DNA from: Peribolospora baueri
Taxonomy: Eukaryota
NCBI GenBank assembly: GCA_029717555.1
Contig: JAMDHS010000046.1
Span: forward strand, 124,001-176,332
Direction of reading: 5' to 3'
DNA length: 52,332 bases
Below are positions 11,661 to 22,108 of this stretch, one piece after another (the stretch's first letter is position 1; each line of letters starts with the position of its first letter). Under the pieces are notes generated by a model that worked only from the letters and a program-made list of their open reading frames with translations, was not told the origin of the DNA and made no database searches. The translations under genes were made by a program, and so were the position numbers.

Positions 11661-13468
11661 TCAGTCCTGCAACTCGTCCGCGCCGCCCCGGTACTGACCC
11701 CGCGCAGCCTCGCTGCACCACCTCGCCATCTGCACGAACCGAGCCTGCGCCCCCTTCCAGTCCCCCTTGGCCCATTTTTTCATCGCCGCCCCCTGCAGCG
11801 CCCGCCCGTAGGAGAAGGACAGGTTCCAAGGGTACTTGCGACGGTCCTGCGACGCCAGTACGTTTACCGCGTTCAGATACCACAGCGCCTTGGCGTCGGT
11901 GAGCCCGCCTGCGACGGCGATAGAGAGAGAGAGAGAGAGGATGAGGATCATCCTCGCGTCCTTCGCCCAGTCCTCCTCCTCACTCACCGCTCAGGAAGAC
12001 GACACACGGGATGGCAGGCGGCACGACTGGTCGCGTCGAGCGCAGCGGAAAGGTGCAAGACAGACAGGTTAGACTCGGTCCGTCGTCGGGTGGACGGACA
12101 AACACCTGGAAGCCTGGCCATGACCTCAGCCGCGTAGCAAGATAGAGATAATGATCCGCTCACCTTTGCTCAGCACGTGCAGCGTGGCCTCGGCGACGGC
12201 CTGCTCCGTCACCGTCGTCGCCTCCGCGTTCCTGTCCCCCGGCATCACGAACGACGCCTTGAGGACGCACCCGGCAAAGTCGACCTGGCGACATGACGCA
12301 CCCATCGGGGTTCGTCCCATACATGTCTGTCGCATCAGCCAAACGAACACGAACGCCACTCTCCGACTCCCCGTCTGTCTCTCGTCGTTACGGTCCGTCG
12401 GTCGGTCGATGCACGCACCTTGTTAAGCTCGAGCTTCTTGATCACCATCGCGTACGAGGCGATGTGCGCCTCGACGGAGCGTGCGAGCGTGTAGTCGCCC
12501 GTCATCAGCAGTTCTGCAGCCCCACCAAGGTTTTTTCGACATGAAGACGACGTCAGTCAGACCGAGGCCGGTACGGTACCTTACGTTACGCTCGACGACC
12601 ACGCTCCCCTTTCTTTCCTTCTCCCTCACTCACCCGGCTCCACGATCGGCACCAGCCCCTCGGACTGACTGATCGCCGCGAACCTCCCCAGCACCTCCGC
12701 ATTGTCCTCCCGAGCGAGCTCCGTCGGCGTCGTGTCGGAAATGACGTACTGCGCTCGCCACTTGGTGAACCTCGCCCCGCGCTCGTAGTACGCCCTCGAC
12801 CGCGCCTTCAGGTTGTCCAGCCCTTGCGTCGTCGTCTCTTCCGGCTCCGTACGCGGCAGCGGCTGCAGTCCCATATCCGTCTTCACCCCCGGTAGGATCT
12901 CCCGGTCGAGAAGGACGCGGATGAACGGCTTGCCCTGTCCGTCGACGACACGACACCACACGAAGCGACGCGACGAGACGACCGGCGCCAGTCATTCAGT
13001 CAGCTAATCTGTCCCTCCGTCATTCATTCAGACAGCCCTGCCTGCTTGCTTCAAGCATGCGAACCAGCGCACCCGCGCGCTCACCTTCCATTCCCCCATC
13101 TCGCTGCCGTGTTTCATCAGCGTCTCTTCGAACATGATCACCCCGCTGAGATATTTGTCGATCTATAGCCCAAGCGTCGCACCGAAAAAGCCGTCGGTCA
13201 GTCCGTCGGTCCATCGGTCAGTCAGCCAGTCATCTCCGCCACTCACATCGGGGCTGCTCAACAAAAGATCCCTCCAGGCCCTCCTGTTCTCCTCCGTGTT
13301 CTCCATCCCTACGCTTTCGAACCGCTTCTTGATCGACCCCAACGATTCGTCCGCCGCCAGCAACCCCTTACCCTCCCACGCGATGTGCCTCGCCGTGGCG
13401 TGCAGCTCGGCCGCGAAGGGGAGCGGGTGGGATGGCATAAAGTACTGGGGAACGTTGAGGGTGCCCAT
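11661..13468 (-). CDS. Class I (Schiff-base) fructose-bisphosphate aldolase, spliced
   Basis: [68 protein letters not shown] (Schiff-base Lys), a short exon [14 protein letters not shown], and [12 protein letters not shown]. The introns checked are GT-AG and in frame. Confidence 0.93.
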
Positions 13469-13954
13469 GGCTGTCGTTGTCAAAAAAAAAAAATTCCAAT
13501 CGACGGTTGCCGCTGGCTCTTCACCTTGTGCGTGAACCCCTCTGCCCTAGACGTTCGTGCTGTGCTTTAAGGGCGCTCTCGATTCCCCGCACTCTCCTTG
13601 ATCGCGCTCTTCCTGCTGACTGAGACGCGGGGCGGGATATGTCTCGCCACTCGTCAGCCAAGCTTCTACGCAGCGGCCGTACCGAGATGATGGTCTGTGA
13701 TAGGTTGAGCTAAATTCGCGCCCCGGACGGGGTGAGATGGAGCGAGACACGCTTTCAGAGCAAATGCAGTTAGTGAATTCAATTCGACGAGCAACCTCGA
13801 TCGCCGGACGACGACGAGACAGGGACGATAAACGAAGCAAGCGAGCAGGACATCGGAGAATACAATTCTGATACTAACACACTTATGTTTCTTAACTCGA
13901 GAGACAAGCAAGCAAAATAACGAAATATAGTAAGAGAGCAATAGCGCGTCACCT

Positions 13955-16900
13955 TCACAGCACGCTCCCGCCATCGCTTGAGGTGGAGCCAAGAATTTCA
14001 AAATCATCGTCACTGTCGACGATCTCGGCGTCCTCGAACGGATCCGAGCTCACGCCGGCGTCCGTGTCGTCGAGGGTCATGTCTGAGACCGCACTCCCGC
14101 CGTTCGACTGGCTTTGAACAACGGAGTAGGACTTTGACGAGTCCACCGACAGCACGTCGGACCCAGATCCCGAGAGCGTGTTCGCCGGCGTCGTCAAAGG
14201 CTCGGTCTGGCGCTTGACATCGGACGTGTCGATGGTGGGATATCGAATGGACGAGGCGGACAGTGACTCGTCCGACTTGCGCATCGTATCTTGTTCGTCC
14301 ACGACATTCACACTGGTTCGGGGAGCCAAATCGAGCGAATCAGCTCGTGGAAACCTCCATACGTGTCGGCGAGATCATCGTCACTCACTCGATCCAGAGC
14401 TGATGCCCGAAAGTCTTCGGATCGTCCGCCGTGCGCAGACGGAAGAAGCCGACGCTCCTACCCGGCACTGAGGGTACCACGAGGTCGTCCGCGCGAATCG
14501 TAACCTCTTCTCCAGGCAGAGCGGCGCCGACAGCAAAGCCGCCGTGGTCCTTCCGTAGACCAAATCTGTCACCGCCGACGTGGACGAGTCGGACGCCATC
14601 AGGCCAAGCGACGGCCGACGTATTCTTGATGACCCAAATCTTGTTGAAGTTACACCCTGCCACGACGGCCGCCTGTGAGGAGGGATAGAATGGGGACGTT
14701 CGTTCAGGAGGGGTACAATCGTGACAGATCGCGCATTGCACACTTACGCCGTCTGGAAGATTGACGTCGCGGACGAATGTCGCGGACAAGCAGTCACCGT
14801 TCGACGGTCCCCGCGTTTCAACGGTGGGGACACTGGAGGGCGAATCGGCCACCAGGTTGGGCGACGACGCCTCAGTATGCACCTCCGGCGTCTGCAGAGC
14901 CGGCGACGGCGACTTTGATTTGCTTGCGTCCTCGGTCGTCCCCCTCTCAGAGAGGAAGCAGCACAATTTGCCGTACAGGGCTGGACTCATATCGCGGTCT
15001 AGGTCGAATTCGACGGCCGCCTTCGACACTTCACGCTGGAGACAAAGTCGGGGCCGCAGGCGGTAAGAATTCGCGTCCGTCTGAAGTGTCTTTTAACTGC
15101 CGACTCACACTGTAGTTCTCGTCTGCTAGAATAAGCTCCACTGCTTGTCGGACTTTCTCAGGACGCAGGCTGAGTAGCTTGCCGGCCAATTCGCTCTTCT
15201 GTGCGAATGACACACTCGAACCTTGCGGCGCAGGCTCAGGTACCCATTCCAGTGAAACGTGAGTGGCGGCCTTGTCATCGGATGCCGGAGCAACCGCCTC
15301 GCCAGTCGCTGTGGCCGTGGTGGACTCCTTCTGTGCCTCTGGCCCCTTCACCACGATTGCCTTATCTGTGTTTCCATACGAAGGCGCCGCCGCAGGAACC
15401 ACATCATAACCGCAAATGTTGCGGCTTCGATTAACAGCAGCCGAGACGTTGGGGCGACTCTGGGGCTTATTGATCTTCAGGAAAATGTGCGACGGATCGT
15501 GGCTGTTGGACGGCGAAGCCTCGCAGCGGGCGCACAAATCGAAATCTGCAAAATGAAGGATCCGGAGATCAGTTGGCTCGCACTTGCGCGACGTCTGGGA
15601 AGGCCTACTGACCTGGGCAAGCCAGCGAAGTGCACTTGAACCTTGGGCCAACGATGGCCCCGTAGCAACCGTCGCAAAAAACATGGCTAATAGAGCAGAC
15701 GCAACACGAGATCAGGGCACGACAACATCAAGCGGAAGACCAGCGGTACCATACTCACGGATGCTTCACCATCAGTTGAGTGTTCACGTCCTCGGGACGA
15801 TTGATACGGTACCATGCATGACCCGGATGGGTCGACCCTACATTCTCGAAACACCTTGAGCATGCGTCGAAGTCGTGGCAGTGGAAGCCTGCCCAAGAAC
15901 AAGTCGAGCACCATTCCCCCATTTCAGCTGGTGCAATGGCTGATTGAGGGAGGATATGAAGATGACCGAAAACTTACACTTCCACCTGATACCATGAATG
16001 GTCAGCCCGCAAAAATCGCAAAATGCCGCATGTGTCGGTTCCTCATTTGGGGCTTGTGTAATAGCTGAGGGCACTTGGCTAACAAGCGGGGACGTTGCAG
16101 AATCGCACGGTGTCTGGGGCTTCGCCAGAGGATGGTCATACTTGGCGAAAACGTGCAGATGATCGTGAAAGTTGGCTCGCGAGTCGTAATGCTCCGAGCA
16201 CTGGTCGGTCAACATAAATTCAAGCGGTTAGACAACCGCTACAAACGTATAATCCAGCACACGACGGGAGAAAGCACTTACCAAATCATAATCTTTACAA
16301 TGAAGACACTTGAAGCGCCAGCCACGGATAGGAGAACCGCACGAAGGAGCATCGCAGAACACTCCAAGATAAGGGGCTCCTTCGTTGACCTTTTTAAGAG
16401 GCAAAGCGGGCATGGCGGCAGGAGGCCTCGCGTCTGCCTCAGTGGCGGGATATGACCCAGGCAATTGGAAGGCCGCGCGTCCATTGCAAGTCACTCCATT
16501 GGCCGCCGATGTAGGTGCTGCCTCGCGTCTCTCACGCACACTGCCGTACTTGACGGAGATGTCCACAAAGTCGCTACCCAGGTTGGCCGAGAGGGTGTTA
16601 TTGAGATTGACAAGGAAACCGTCAAGAATCTCGCGAATTTTGTCTCCGGTCAAGGGCTTAGCTGTCTCGGAAGCTGGTTTGGTGGCGACGCGGTCAGGTA
16701 ACGTGGTGCTGACGTGCGTGGGAGACTTCTGCCAGCCCTTTTTAACATCCTTGGTGACATTTGATGCGCCGTGACGTGCTACCTGCTTGTCTTCAATGCG
16801 CAGCTTCATAGACTTGTTACTCTCGATGCACTCTTGCAGCATCCGCTCGAAGACAGGGTCCCTGTCCGAATCTGGGGAGGGGGTGAAAAGGAGTTGCCAA

Positions 16901-17494
16901 AAGAGTGAGCTGGAATCACGCTCAGCATAAGAGTCTCTCTTATACCTCACAAGTAGATGCTGTCGTCCCCATATGCGACGGCTTCTTGAAGTAGACATCG
17001 ACGCTTCTGTCCATCGGGATGTGGAGATGCTCCTTCACCATCTCCTCGAGCCTACGACGGAACTCGGATATGGTGCGGTCCACAAAAATGTAGGGTAGGG
17101 CCCACGACCGATGCGGCGACGACTGTTTGGTGGAGTTGCGAGTCATATACTGGGCTTCGATGGAGAGCGTTGCCAGCGATCCCGTCATAGAGTTGGCTTG
17201 TAGATTGACGGGGTTCCTAGGGTCCTTGACCTTATAGACTTTTACAATCAGGCTTCCATCGGATAAAGACTCGAGGAAATCGGGAAAGCTACCGCCGAAG
17301 CGGGGAAAAATGGAGCTCCAGTACGGAAAGCGATTGTGGCGTGTTTCGACAAGGACGTCAGCATCGCCGCCGTTCCAATGTATTTCGTTCAAGATTTGTT
17401 TGTCGAAGTCGGCCTTGGTCAATTTGCAAGAGATCGAAACTTCCTGAATAATGGCGCCGGGGTAGCTCAGCACGACGCAGAGCACCGACGACAT
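13955..17494 (-). CDS. NBR1: NBR1-like selective autophagy receptor (PB1-like N-terminus, 3 ZZ zinc fingers, ET-like domain, FW domain, C-terminal AIM/LIR)
   Basis: ATG 17494. ZZ1 CDAPSC..KCLHCKDYDLCSEH, ZZ2 CDFC..WKCFHCHDFDACSRC, ZZ3 CDGC..FKCTSLACPDFDLCARC..HDPSH; FW domain ATFVRDVNLPDG..FNKIWVIKNTSAVAWP..FRLRT..FGHQLWIE; DDDFEIL near the C-terminus; no UBA domain seen. Confidence 0.85.
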
Positions 17495-17716
17495 CTTGGA
17501 CGCTGGCGAGGTGACGGGAGAAAAGCAAAATAGATCGAGACGGTGGCTGGCTTGTCTGGCGTCGGGCCTCGTCACCCCACAATCGGCGGCGTTTTGCGGC
17601 GATAGCGGCGATCGAGGCAACGCGACGCTCTCGATTGATGGCAGCGACGCACACAAACGGCACCATCATCCGTTTCACACCTTCCTCCGCGACCCGAGAT
17701 GGACGCACGACCCGAG

Positions 17717-20700
17717 ATGGATGGCGTCGACGGCTCGATGCCGCCGGCGGCCTCGCAGACCTTGCAGGCGAACGTCAACGGCGCCGGCGAGTACGTGCCT
17801 CGTCACATTTTCCTCAAGTTGGAAAAGGAGGAAATCCCTATCGACCTCAATGATCTTCCCGACATCGGCGATATTCTCCTCCTCATCGAGGAAGACAAGC
17901 CGCAAGTTGAGGGCCCGCTTCAGATCGCAGACGAGTATTGGGTGACTGGAAAGAGGGATCTGGCGGAGCAGCTTGTGAAGGCGGCCATTCGGGGTAAGAT
18001 GTCCTTCTGCTCGCTGAGCCGGCTGCGTCTTAGGCTGGCTAGGCGACTTTCACTGAAAAATACACCGCATCTGCATCTCATGGCTCTCTATGCACAGTCT
18101 ACGCTGCAAATCCTTCTCTGATTTTGCCCTTCCTTGCGTTGCAAGCTAGTTTCAATGTAGCCAAGGCCCGGACGGCGCCGAAAACTATCTTCAAGGAAGC
18201 GCGTGCGTCATCTTCTTACATCTTCCTCTCCCCGGTCGAGCAACTGTCCGCCTTGCGCGTTCCTCAACCTCCTCGCCCTTATGTCTTCTCGTTTGTTTGT
18301 AAAGGTCACAAGGTCCTCGAGGGCGAGCCCACGAAGAAACACTACCATCAGGAAGCCACTGCCTGTTACAACGGGGCCGACCGAATCGACCCCAGAAATG
18401 TGGTCACTCAGTTGGGCAAAGGTGTGGCGCTCGTTTGGAATCGGTTCACTGGCTAAATACCTCCTTTCATGCTCACGTTAAGCGGGCTATCCTGCATCAG
18501 GAATTTTGCATCTTGCTATGGGTGGCGCAGACCAAGCATTGAAGATCTTTGAAGCAATTCTCAAGCAACGGCCCACTAACATCCTTGCGCTAATGGGCAA
18601 GGTGAGACTTCAGTTGGACATGCATGACTTGAGATGTGTCCTCACTAACTTTCGGTATTGAACGTCGACTTCTGTTGTCTTTCACTGCGTGTGGACTAGG
18701 CGCGCATTTTGTTCTCGCGTTCGAAGTTCAAGGAGGCACTCGTTTTGTACCAGGCCGCACTCCGTCTTCTGCCTCCTCCTGGCTCATCGGAGTTTATTTC
18801 AGCGGAATGGGGCTCAAGAAGAGAAGCCCCGGACCCCCGAATTGGTATTGGCCTCTGTCTCGCCAACATGGGCCGACTTGAAGATGCCCGGCGTGCTTGG
18901 GAGCGCAGCCGTCAAATTGCGAGTAGTGCTGTTGTCCAAAGCTATATTCACGGCTTTTTCTTTCTCCATCGGTGTTGCTCATGCTGGTCGGTGGTTCGGT
19001 TTGATAGTTTCCCAACTCGTATGCGGCCTATCTCCTGCTCGGCCTTTTGGACCTCAACGCTTCCAAGGATCCTTCGTTGCCACGCGTCGTCCAAGCTGGC
19101 CATTATAGGGCCGGCATCGAGAATCTCCAGCGGGCTTGGAAGATCAACAATGCGAACGCAGCGGCAGCAAATGCTCTGGGCGAACATTTCATGAACAAGG
19201 GCGTATGGACGACCGCGCAAAAGCTTGCCGAGCACACGATTCAATACGCCGACACTCGTCTTGCCTTGGCTCACGGATACCTGTCTTTGGCAAGGACTTA
19301 CCATCGCTTAGGGGATCTTGCAACTGCGCAGCGACTCTACTCGACAGCCGCTGCAGTGGTCTCCACGGCTCCTGCTGGTCCCATCGGAGCCCTTGCAACG
19401 CTCGGTTGTGCGCAGATCGACATTCAAAAGGGCGAGACATTATCTGCTATGAACGCCTTGGACGACTTGTGGACTAAGTCGCGAGAGAGTATCGCAGAGG
19501 TTGGGACCATTCTGGCCTCTTTGCGAGCCAGAGGCCACGCTGGTGCCCGGAAGGAGGAAGCTATGGCAGACAGGGAAAAGGCCAGAGTCATCTTCGACCG
19601 TACGAGCAAGATGTTGTCCGCAATGGCTAGCTTCGAAGGCAGTGTCCGCCCCGATGTCGGCCCCAGCAGCGACATTCTCAAACTGATGCATGAGCCTCAA
19701 TCACTGATTGAGATGGGCAGGCTTTGGCACAACATCGACCTGGATCGCAGCCGAGACGCCTATCTCGCCGCCCTCGACGCTGTCCGCTCTGGAGCTTACT
19801 CTTCGACGACGGCATCGGACATTGCGAAGCTGTTGTCCAACATCGGGGCTGTCGAGCAACTGCTTGGACAGTCCGAGAGCGCACGTGCTCGCTATGAGGA
19901 AGCGATGACCGAGTTGGCTCAAGCAGCCATTTCAGTCGCGACGAGCTCGGAAACTAACTCCCACGACGCCCTCGTAACCATCATCACATACAACCTCGCC
20001 CGCGCGTACGAGGATGTCGATGATGCGGCCGCTGCCAAGCAAGCCTATGAGCGTCTCCTCAGCAGCCATCCCGAATACGCTGACGGTGAGTAACCAGAAA
20101 TTCCAATATCATTTTCCTTGGTTTTCTGATTGACGAAGTATTCTATCCGTTCCTTGTGACCGACAGCCAAGGCAAGGCTTGCTGCTCTAGCGCTCTCATT
20201 TAACCGCCAGAACGATGCACACGAGCTACTTAAGCAGGCCTTGACAGCTCAAAGCGCGAACCCGAATCTGCGAGCGTTCTACTCTCACTTCCTGGCTTCG
20301 AACAACTCCTGGGCAGTCCTCAAGGACTTTTGCGCCGCCACTCTCAAGGATGTGTCTAGCCATGACGTATACGCCCTTGTGGCATACGGATGGGCTTGCT
20401 ACAACGTGGGTCGAAATTCCAGACCACCCCCTGGATCTGGGCCGGCTGGTGAACAGTCGGCCGCGAAGGAGAAGAGCAGAAACTACTTGCGTGCTGCCGA
20501 GTTCTTCGAGAAGGCCCTGCAGTACGATCCCAAGTGCGCAGTCGCAGCGCAAGGGATCGCCATCTTGATTGCGGAAGACGCTATGTCCATCGCCGCCGCT
20601 GGCGGGGGTTCTGCCGCTGTTATGGCAGCGAGTCAAGATGCATCTACGCGGGCACGAAACGCGCGTGATGCGATCACGGTCTTGGGCAGAGTCAGGGAGA

Positions 20701-22108
20701 CCTTAACCGATGGGAGCGTTTTCATCAATCTCGGACATTGCTTCTACAATCGCGAAGAGTATGACCGTGCCATCGAGAACGTGAGTTTGTTCGGTTGTGT
20801 TTTAGCACCTGGGCAGGGACTAGCTGTTGACGTCTGTTGTTCTTCCGCTAGTATGGGCTCGCTTCCAAACGATTCTACAACGGACAGAACGTATCTGTCT
20901 TGCAGTACCTGGCGAGAACCTGGTTCGCCCGTGCCAACCGCGAACATAGCTATCCTGCGTTGAAAACGGCGCTGAGGTTTTGTCAACAAGTGAGAGAAAC
21001 ACCAATTTTCGGTTTCGTTTCCAACATTGGATGTCAATATCTCTCATGCAATCGCTCGCTTTCTGTTTGGCCCCATAGGCTCTATATCTTCAGCCGCAAG
21101 ATCGGGGCATGCTCTTCAACGTTGCGCTTATTCAACAGAAGATGCTTGAATTATTGTTCTCATTGCCTCCTCCCAAACGCAAGCTTTCCGACATGCAAGC
21201 CGTCATTGAAAGTGCTATGCATTCGCAAAAGTAAGCTCGTCTGGGGGGTTGACTTCGGTCATCCACATTTTCCTGTTGACGTGTCCCGACATTCCCTGCT
21301 AACTGTTCGTTTCTGACATGGTTTCCTGTGCCTCTCCCGCTCGCCCGCTCATGTCCGCAGACTGTTCACGACCCTGGCGTCAGATAAAACTGCCACGCCA
21401 GCGCTTGGGTACAGTGCCGAGGTGGCCGACCAACGCCGTCGTTATGGCGAAACGCTACTCAAGCGTTCTAGCGCTGAGGTAGAAAAACAGGAGAAGCACG
21501 AAGTCGAAGAGTCAGCACGACTTGAGGCCGCTCGCCGCAAACGGCAAGAGGACATGGACAGGCAAGAGGCGGAGAAGCGGAGGAAGCAAGAGGAATATGC
21601 TGCGAAAGCTGAAGCGCTTCGCAAGCAGAGGGAGGAGCAGAAGAAGGAAGCTATGGAGTTGATGAAGGCGCAACAGGAACGACTTCAGATGGAGGAGGAG
21701 GAAGAACGGAGAAAGAAGGAACTTCGGGGCGAGGGAAAACAAGCGAAGGGCAAGGGCTCACGTCGCAAGAAGGTCCAAAAAGAAGACGACGAGGAGGATG
21801 CCTTACCCAACGACAGCTCCGAGGGCTCCGAAGAGGCCGCGTTCAGCAGCGATGGGGGCGCTACTTCCAGCAAGAAGCGCAAAAAGTTGAGGCGGGTAGT
21901 CAACACCGACAGCGAGGGAGAAGGCGCATCCGACGGCGGTGTGACGAAGAAGCCGAAGAGGGTGAGATGCCTACCGAGGTCGTCCTCGTACCCTTGGCAG
22001 CCGTTGGTTGACTCCTGTTCCTTTTCTTCGCCTACACAGCGGATTGTGCGTGAGAGCAAGAAGAAGTACAAGTCTGCAGAGACTATTGAGTCGTCCGAAG
22101 AAGAGTAA
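17717..22108 (+). CDS. CTR9: Paf1 complex TPR subunit Ctr9, spliced
   Basis: N-terminal IPIDLNDLP, PDPRIGIGLC, TPR-like repeats, YERLLSSHPEYADA, FFEKALQYDPKCAVAAQGIAI, VLGRVRETLTDGSVFINLGH, ADQRRRYGETL, and a charged C-terminal tail ending KYKSAETIESSEEE. Confidence 0.88.

Follow-up and report, generated by a model that had tools for sequence, protein, structure and literature searches.

Cargo recognition by fungal Nbr1 uses pockets of ZZ and FW that bind N-termini, and it serves vacuolar hydrolases and peroxisomes; descriptions of extra-terminal (ET) domains place them in nuclear proteins of the BET and YEATS families. The plan given for fungal Nbr1 in the literature consists of PB1, ZZ, CC, FW, LIR, AH and UBA elements (PMC9582228, in part). 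In fungi the N-terminal PB1 is often degenerate. YEATS-type ET domains (Taf14, AF9) have the same fold class and strand-pairing mode as the BET type found in Bdf1/Bdf2 and BRD2/3/4 (PMC7442819, in part).

The window analysed here, 52,332 nucleotides of a Peribolospora baueri contig (JAMDHS010000046.1, positions 124,001 to 176,332), carries an Nbr1 gene on its minus strand. An earlier note on this DNA had proposed that an NBR1-like autophagy receptor in the window holds a BET-type ET domain between its third ZZ finger (ZZ3) and its FW domain. In our gene model, removal of eight GT-AG introns of 67-89 nt each leaves a single open frame of 975 residues. Its features, in window coordinates, are as follows.

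13955-17494, minus strand: Nbr1 gene, 975 amino acids, 9 exons, modelled from sequence
17494-16951, 16871-16282, 16200-15978, 15888-15759 and 15686-15613, minus strand: Nbr1 exons 1-5
15545-15109, 15035-14748, 14672-14389 and 14312-13955, minus strand: Nbr1 exons 6-9
16860-17494, minus strand: N-terminal region with one or two probable PB1/ubiquitin-like folds
15470-16365, minus strand: three ZZ zinc fingers, all interrupted by introns (Pfam ZZ pieces)
15109-15216, minus strand: first ET coding piece, with helix 1, helix 2 and the start of the loop (Pfam BET, 19.3 bits)
15036-15108, minus strand: phase-0 intron of 73 nt, GTGAGT..CAG, in the helix 2-strand loop of the ET domain
14946-15035, minus strand: second ET coding piece, with strand AVEFDLD, helix 3 and a one-residue insertion
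14300-14777, minus strand: FW (NBR1 Ig-like) domain with two introns within it (Pfam PF16158, E 8.7e-20, above cut-off)
13991-14017, minus strand: C-terminal acidic Atg8-interacting-type motif DSDDDFEIL, residues 956-964 (pattern scan)

As judged from its sequence, the host gene is an intact basidiomycete Nbr1 with the standard fungal plan plus the ET domain. The ZZ fingers lie upstream of an FW domain with the strong match listed above (E 8.7e-20), and an acidic F-x-x-L motif stands at the C-terminus; the earlier reading of the host gene as Nbr1 is supported. Four exon translations match Pfam ZZ (E 1e-4 to 0.2, one piece above the cut-off), the ZZ region is 33-39% identical to that of named basidiomycete Nbr1 proteins, and identity to Sporidiobolales Nbr1 is 30% over 600-680 residues. 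Like CtNbr1 of Chaetomium thermophilum, S. pombe Nbr1 and Sordaria NBR1, the protein has several ZZ fingers and an FW domain with pocket residues, seen by eye as Phe, two Asp and His-x-Leu-Trp, of the N-terminus-binding pocket (PMC9233695, in part). It also shares with fungal Nbr1 a C-terminal LIR/AIM-type motif, a putative Atg8-binding site whose F-x-x-L tail has similar counterparts in homologues P0089 and P0197, and the lack of a UBA, for which the last exon has no Pfam match. The N-terminus may be PB1-like: an Atlas search of this region gave PB1-like clusters at 0.89, with the family on 11-13% of members, and a low-confidence model (pLDDT 40) has the order beta-beta-alpha-beta-beta-alpha-beta. 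The region gives no Pfam match. The host is not itself a gene of the BET family, as no exon translation matched a bromodomain, and a search of the 975-residue protein for a classical NLS found none. What distinguishes the window's protein from described fungal Nbr1 is the ET domain that follows its last ZZ and precedes FW.

This ET segment comprises 66 residues, Nbr1 residues 631-696. One exon encodes the end of ZZ3 together with the first ET piece, another the second ET piece together with the start of FW, all in one frame, and the segment is complete, with no stop and no frameshift. The intron that the earlier note had placed at 15108-15036 (GTGAGT..CAG) is upheld by the reading frame: its length of 73 nt is not divisible by three and an unspliced frame runs into a stop at 15031-15033, so that FW and the tail can be translated only after splicing. 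The region has 155 GT-AG pairs that keep the frame, of which two combine a consensus-like donor with a YAG acceptor, and both use donor 15108, giving either this 73-nt intron or one of 217 nt that ends at acceptor 14892. The other introns of the gene span 67-89 nt, and by eye their branch-site matches are stronger than that of the ET intron. If the in-frame distal acceptor 14892 were used, the ET domain would lose its strand and helix 3 with FW kept, making an ET-less isoform possible. Base composition is close to that of the ZZ region, with GC of 0.54 and GC3 of 0.62 in the ET segment versus 0.54 and 0.59.

As the earlier note had proposed, sequence comparison supports an ET domain of the Bdf1 (BET) type in the stretch from ZZ3 to FW, as opposed to a UBA/CUE bundle. 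Against Pfam BET (PF17035), with the exon pieces scanned separately, the first piece scores 19.3 bits (E 0.0012) where it aligns, at positions 2-32 of 64, below the curated cut-off of 24.5 bits, and the second piece alone has no Pfam match. The whole domain was tested on two local profiles. The broad profile started from 109 metagenome loci fetched with a consensus ET motif, from which 37 contiguous, non-redundant loci were chosen by eye; Pfam BET was confirmed in all ten of these that were checked. Picking the family on a strand motif shapes the profile, yet is independent of the window's sequence. Here the spliced segment scores 20.7 bits, ungapped over positions 7-57, against 16.6 bits for the first piece, 15.7 bits for the retained-intron form and 6.5 bits for the best of 5000 shuffles. 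When the first half was held fixed and the second shuffled, the real score was reached once in 5000, and a BLOSUM test of the second half alone gave 4 of 2000.

On the fungal ET profile (20 sequences) the spliced segment reaches 25.6 bits over positions 9-68, compared with 19.7 bits for the first piece and at most 6.6 bits in 5000 shuffles. The match spans all three helices and the strand, with helix 3 aligning after a one-residue insertion, and the second piece contributes 4-6 bits to the profile score. In a six-frame scan of the window, a single segment of 1485 scores as ET, in the frame of the first piece (E 0.0055; next 4.8). Profile-profile comparison of the ET segment gave a probability of 22% with P 2e-4. 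Searches of solved structures and of the Atlas with the first piece alone found no match, and the two exon-encoded pieces, predicted as a complex of separate chains with no alignments, received a score of 0.19 and a mark of 0.34.

As in BET-type ET domains, the helix-helix-loop-strand-helix elements are in register and the cleft hydrophobics are present. The BRD3 ET cleft residues L592, V596, I599, I616 and F618 (bioRxiv 2020.09.21.306696, in part) map to V, V, I, F and L in the window's domain, all five hydrophobic. Yeast Bdf1 ET has four alternating acidic residues, and losing three or more of them is lethal (PMC13373324, in part); three of the four positions are kept here (A/E/D/D, by our own mapping), and by eye the acidic strand register fits the BET type rather than the YEATS type. 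In the first half, all ten of the most conserved columns score positive, and these columns were not used in selecting the family. Column conservation and the match score of the window's domain are correlated (Spearman 0.58), and conservation is strongest at core and binding positions. The domain departs from BET-type ET in its identity of about 31%, in the replacement by Ala of two acidic residues right before the strand, in a loop more basic than that of Bdf1, and in a Tyr that aligns, after the one-residue insertion before helix 3, to a conserved helix-3 Leu. Given the lost acidic residues and the helix-3 Tyr, specificity or affinity may differ, and binding may be weak or changed. The largely kept binding-surface residues fit a working docking module, one that is housed in an autophagy receptor and, unlike BET proteins, stands without bromodomains.

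The closest ET domains are those of metagenome loci L071, L013 and L032, with 20-22 identities over 68 residues (about 31%); L071 in turn matches the solved ET domains of BRD2/3/4. We infer the metagenome loci to be fungal. A tree built from 50 ET domains groups the window's segment with L071, L013 and L032 (UFBoot 96), and the four together sit inside the fungal-type group (UFBoot 96), on a tree where the window's branch of 3.3 substitutions per site makes long-branch effects possible. Intron position offers a second line of evidence. For 20 of 21 interrupted ET loci an intron could be modelled, in every case in phase 0, and in the 12 clean loci used further it lies 7-9 codons past the hydrophobic pair that comes last in helix 2; the window's ET intron, also phase 0, lies 7 codons past that pair. 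The loop position in these loci follows from how they were chosen, which does not apply to the shared phase. With three phase-0 introns in 975 codons, chance placement of one in the ET loop comes to a few percent by our arithmetic. The shared loop and phase favour a copy at the DNA level and suggest that the ET domain was acquired by copying part of a Bdf1 gene. Since the domain has no flanking introns, this would not be a clean exon shuffle, and by eye the resemblance to Bdf1 is limited to the 66-residue domain, with flanks unlike those of Bdf1.

Among homologues, the ET insert was seen in the window's protein alone. Precomputed PF17035 annotation was found in none of 94 Nbr1 homologues, a Pfam scan for BET gave no match in the 120 proteins scanned of 252 stored, and with both local ET profiles none of the 138 other proteins with ZZ followed by FW has an ET domain. 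Across all 252 proteins the best score on these profiles was 7.8 bits, versus 19.4 for the window's full model. In a tree of ZZ plus FW, the window's protein pairs with P0223 (92) and the two group with Pucciniomycotina (83; both values from the raw tree). P0223, the nearest homologue sampled and the only close relative in a sample without named smut Nbr1, lacks the domain. Within the main texts searched, which covered few subscription journals, we found no description of an Nbr1 carrying an ET domain. The ZZ-ET-FW architecture is therefore uncatalogued as far as these 138 proteins and this literature reach, as the earlier note had expected; what that note had offered as its best candidate for an undescribed system is better regarded as a variant of a known receptor, an Nbr1 family member with a BET-type ET insert.

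The slot between ZZ and FW differs widely in length and content among homologues, and another of its occupants offers a parallel. P0131 and P0246 are Agaricomycete-type Nbr1 proteins of the ZZ-PAH-FW plan, with PAH above the Pfam cut-off (in P0131, residues 234-277, E 1e-13), and the solved structures closest to these PAH segments are Sin3 PAH domains. P0070, from an Auriculariales species, has PAH (residues 46-73) and FW, lacks the ZZ part in its model and is 59% identical to P0131. No PAH was found in 33 other, mostly Agaricomycete homologues scanned, and literature searches covering few subscription journals found no description of NBR1 with a PAH domain or with Sin3. In mushrooms, PAH may be mobile. 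As in the window's protein, a small helical docking domain of nuclear co-regulators occupies the slot; the donor differs, Sin3 and not Bdf1, and so does the lineage. With ET here and PAH in an Agaricomycete lineage, such a domain has entered the same slot independently twice.

Microbotryomycete Nbr1 proteins (P0089, P0062, P0151-P0181) have a conserved unnamed module between ZZ3 and FW, formed of a helix, a beta-hairpin with alternating Asp and hydrophobic residues, a short helix and a strand. It weakly resembles the second half of ET, with a profile-profile P of 0.07 against the broad ET profile and of 0.002 against the fungal one, the latter over 21 columns and post hoc. None of 14 members matched BET, the model of the module has a pTM of 0.28, and ET was not among the fold-search matches listed. 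We have left this module uncounted as a decayed ET domain. In P0209 (Hydnum) there are five ZZ fingers and a C-terminal RING where FW would be.

That the ET domain is an added cargo-docking arm of Nbr1, directed to basic-hydrophobic strand motifs, is a reading to which we give an even chance. An ancestor would have copied the ET-coding part of its own Bdf1 gene, intron included, into the ZZ3-FW linker, and the copy would have persisted as a folded domain for peptide docking. ZZ and FW, which bind N-termini (PMC9233695 and bioRxiv 2021.02.07.430097, both in part), would hold cargo by its free N-termini, while Atg8 would be bound through the C-terminal motif. To these the ET domain would add a third recognition mode, in which its acidic/hydrophobic strand pairs with internal hydrophobic-basic-hydrophobic-basic strands, in keeping with the internal hydrophobic-basic strands bound by ET domains (PMC7442819, in part). 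Cytosolic proteins with such motifs, for instance subunits of transcription or chromatin complexes that are in surplus or have not been assembled, could then be carried to the vacuole. Of this, the sequence supports homology to Bdf1-type ET and the keeping of its binding residues; the DNA-level copy, folding, binding and the cargo role are inferred.

Several points count against a cargo arm, among them the altered residues, the low profile-profile probability and the lack of a classical NLS noted above. ET-bearing Nbr1 is known from one genome only, known ET ligands are nuclear whereas fungal Nbr1 acts in the cytoplasm (PMC9233695, in part), and the PAH parallel concerns a different domain in a different lineage. 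ET-binding motifs are moreover so common, with 1253 yeast nuclear proteins carrying them (PMC13373324, in part), that no cargo can be named. If the cargo arm is true, it predicts ubiquitin-independent turnover of proteins bearing co-regulator docking motifs. The captured ET, together with the PAH in the matching slot of a second lineage, would then show a way in which domain capture widens cargo range, and it suggests that docking domains taken from other proteins can bring autophagy receptors new cargo. We hold it unlikely, in a wider form of the idea, that basidiomycete Nbr1 repeatedly captures nuclear docking domains in the ZZ-FW slot as bait that routes transcription regulators or parasite mimics to autophagy, much as plant immune receptors use integrated domains.

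The kept binding residues would also serve if the ET domain works in something other than cargo capture, by docking a regulator or scaffold, by self-association or by binding a strand within Nbr1, which we consider doubtful. Some ET domains, such as that of Taf14, promote clustering, but those of BET type phase-separate weakly (PMC7442819, in part). Nbr1 has one internal hydrophobic-basic core that could serve as the bound strand, at residues 203-207; however, it looks like the last strand of a PB1-like fold, and by eye P0223 has a similar core without having an ET domain. On these two grounds we rejected the 203-207 motif as evidence of self-binding.

The domain might also be a tolerated passenger, the functionless remnant of an old fusion drifting in a permissive linker. 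Its very long branch, its identity of about 31% to the closest ET, the sub-cut-off Pfam score of its first piece, its absence from P0223 and the variable slot would all be expected of such a remnant. A complete domain free of stops and frameshifts, in which conservation is concentrated at core and binding positions (the Spearman value of 0.58 above), would not, and we regard a passenger as distinctly unlikely; were it one, a rare lineage-specific fusion would remain.

Returning to cargo, the earlier note had named retroelement integrases as possible targets. In its fuller form, the ET domain would be an integrated decoy that baits retroelement or mycovirus proteins whose motifs evolved to hijack Bdf1 and sends them to the vacuole. 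MLV integrase binds the BRD3 ET domain through such a motif (bioRxiv 2020.09.21.306696, in part), Atg19 is a precedent in delivering Ty1 particles, as is plant NBR1 in targeting viral proteins (PMC9582228, in part), and the fast divergence and lineage restriction of the ET domain would fit. Beyond this mammalian BRD3-MLV integrase precedent, the integrase idea gained nothing: literature covering few subscription journals gave no link between Bdf1 ET and a retrotransposon integrase, no candidate ligand was identified, and a motif scan of viral contigs returned one match, at chance level. A decoy is quite improbable. An artefact is highly improbable, whether the contig is mis-assembled or the splice model is wrong and a whole domain is never made: searches of limited reach found no close relative to confirm the join, acceptor 14892 is in frame and the branch site of the ET intron is weaker by eye, but the ET pieces share exons and one frame with ZZ3 and FW, their GC and GC3 match the ZZ region, and both halves match ET in register.

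One further gene lies on each side of the receptor gene. Fungi usually use class II fructose-bisphosphate aldolase, and the gene directly downstream of Nbr1 (window 11661-13546, minus strand) encodes a class I enzyme (PF00274). A long TPR gene (17639-22108, plus strand), which resembles the Paf1-complex subunit Ctr9, is divergent from Nbr1 across a short intergenic gap.
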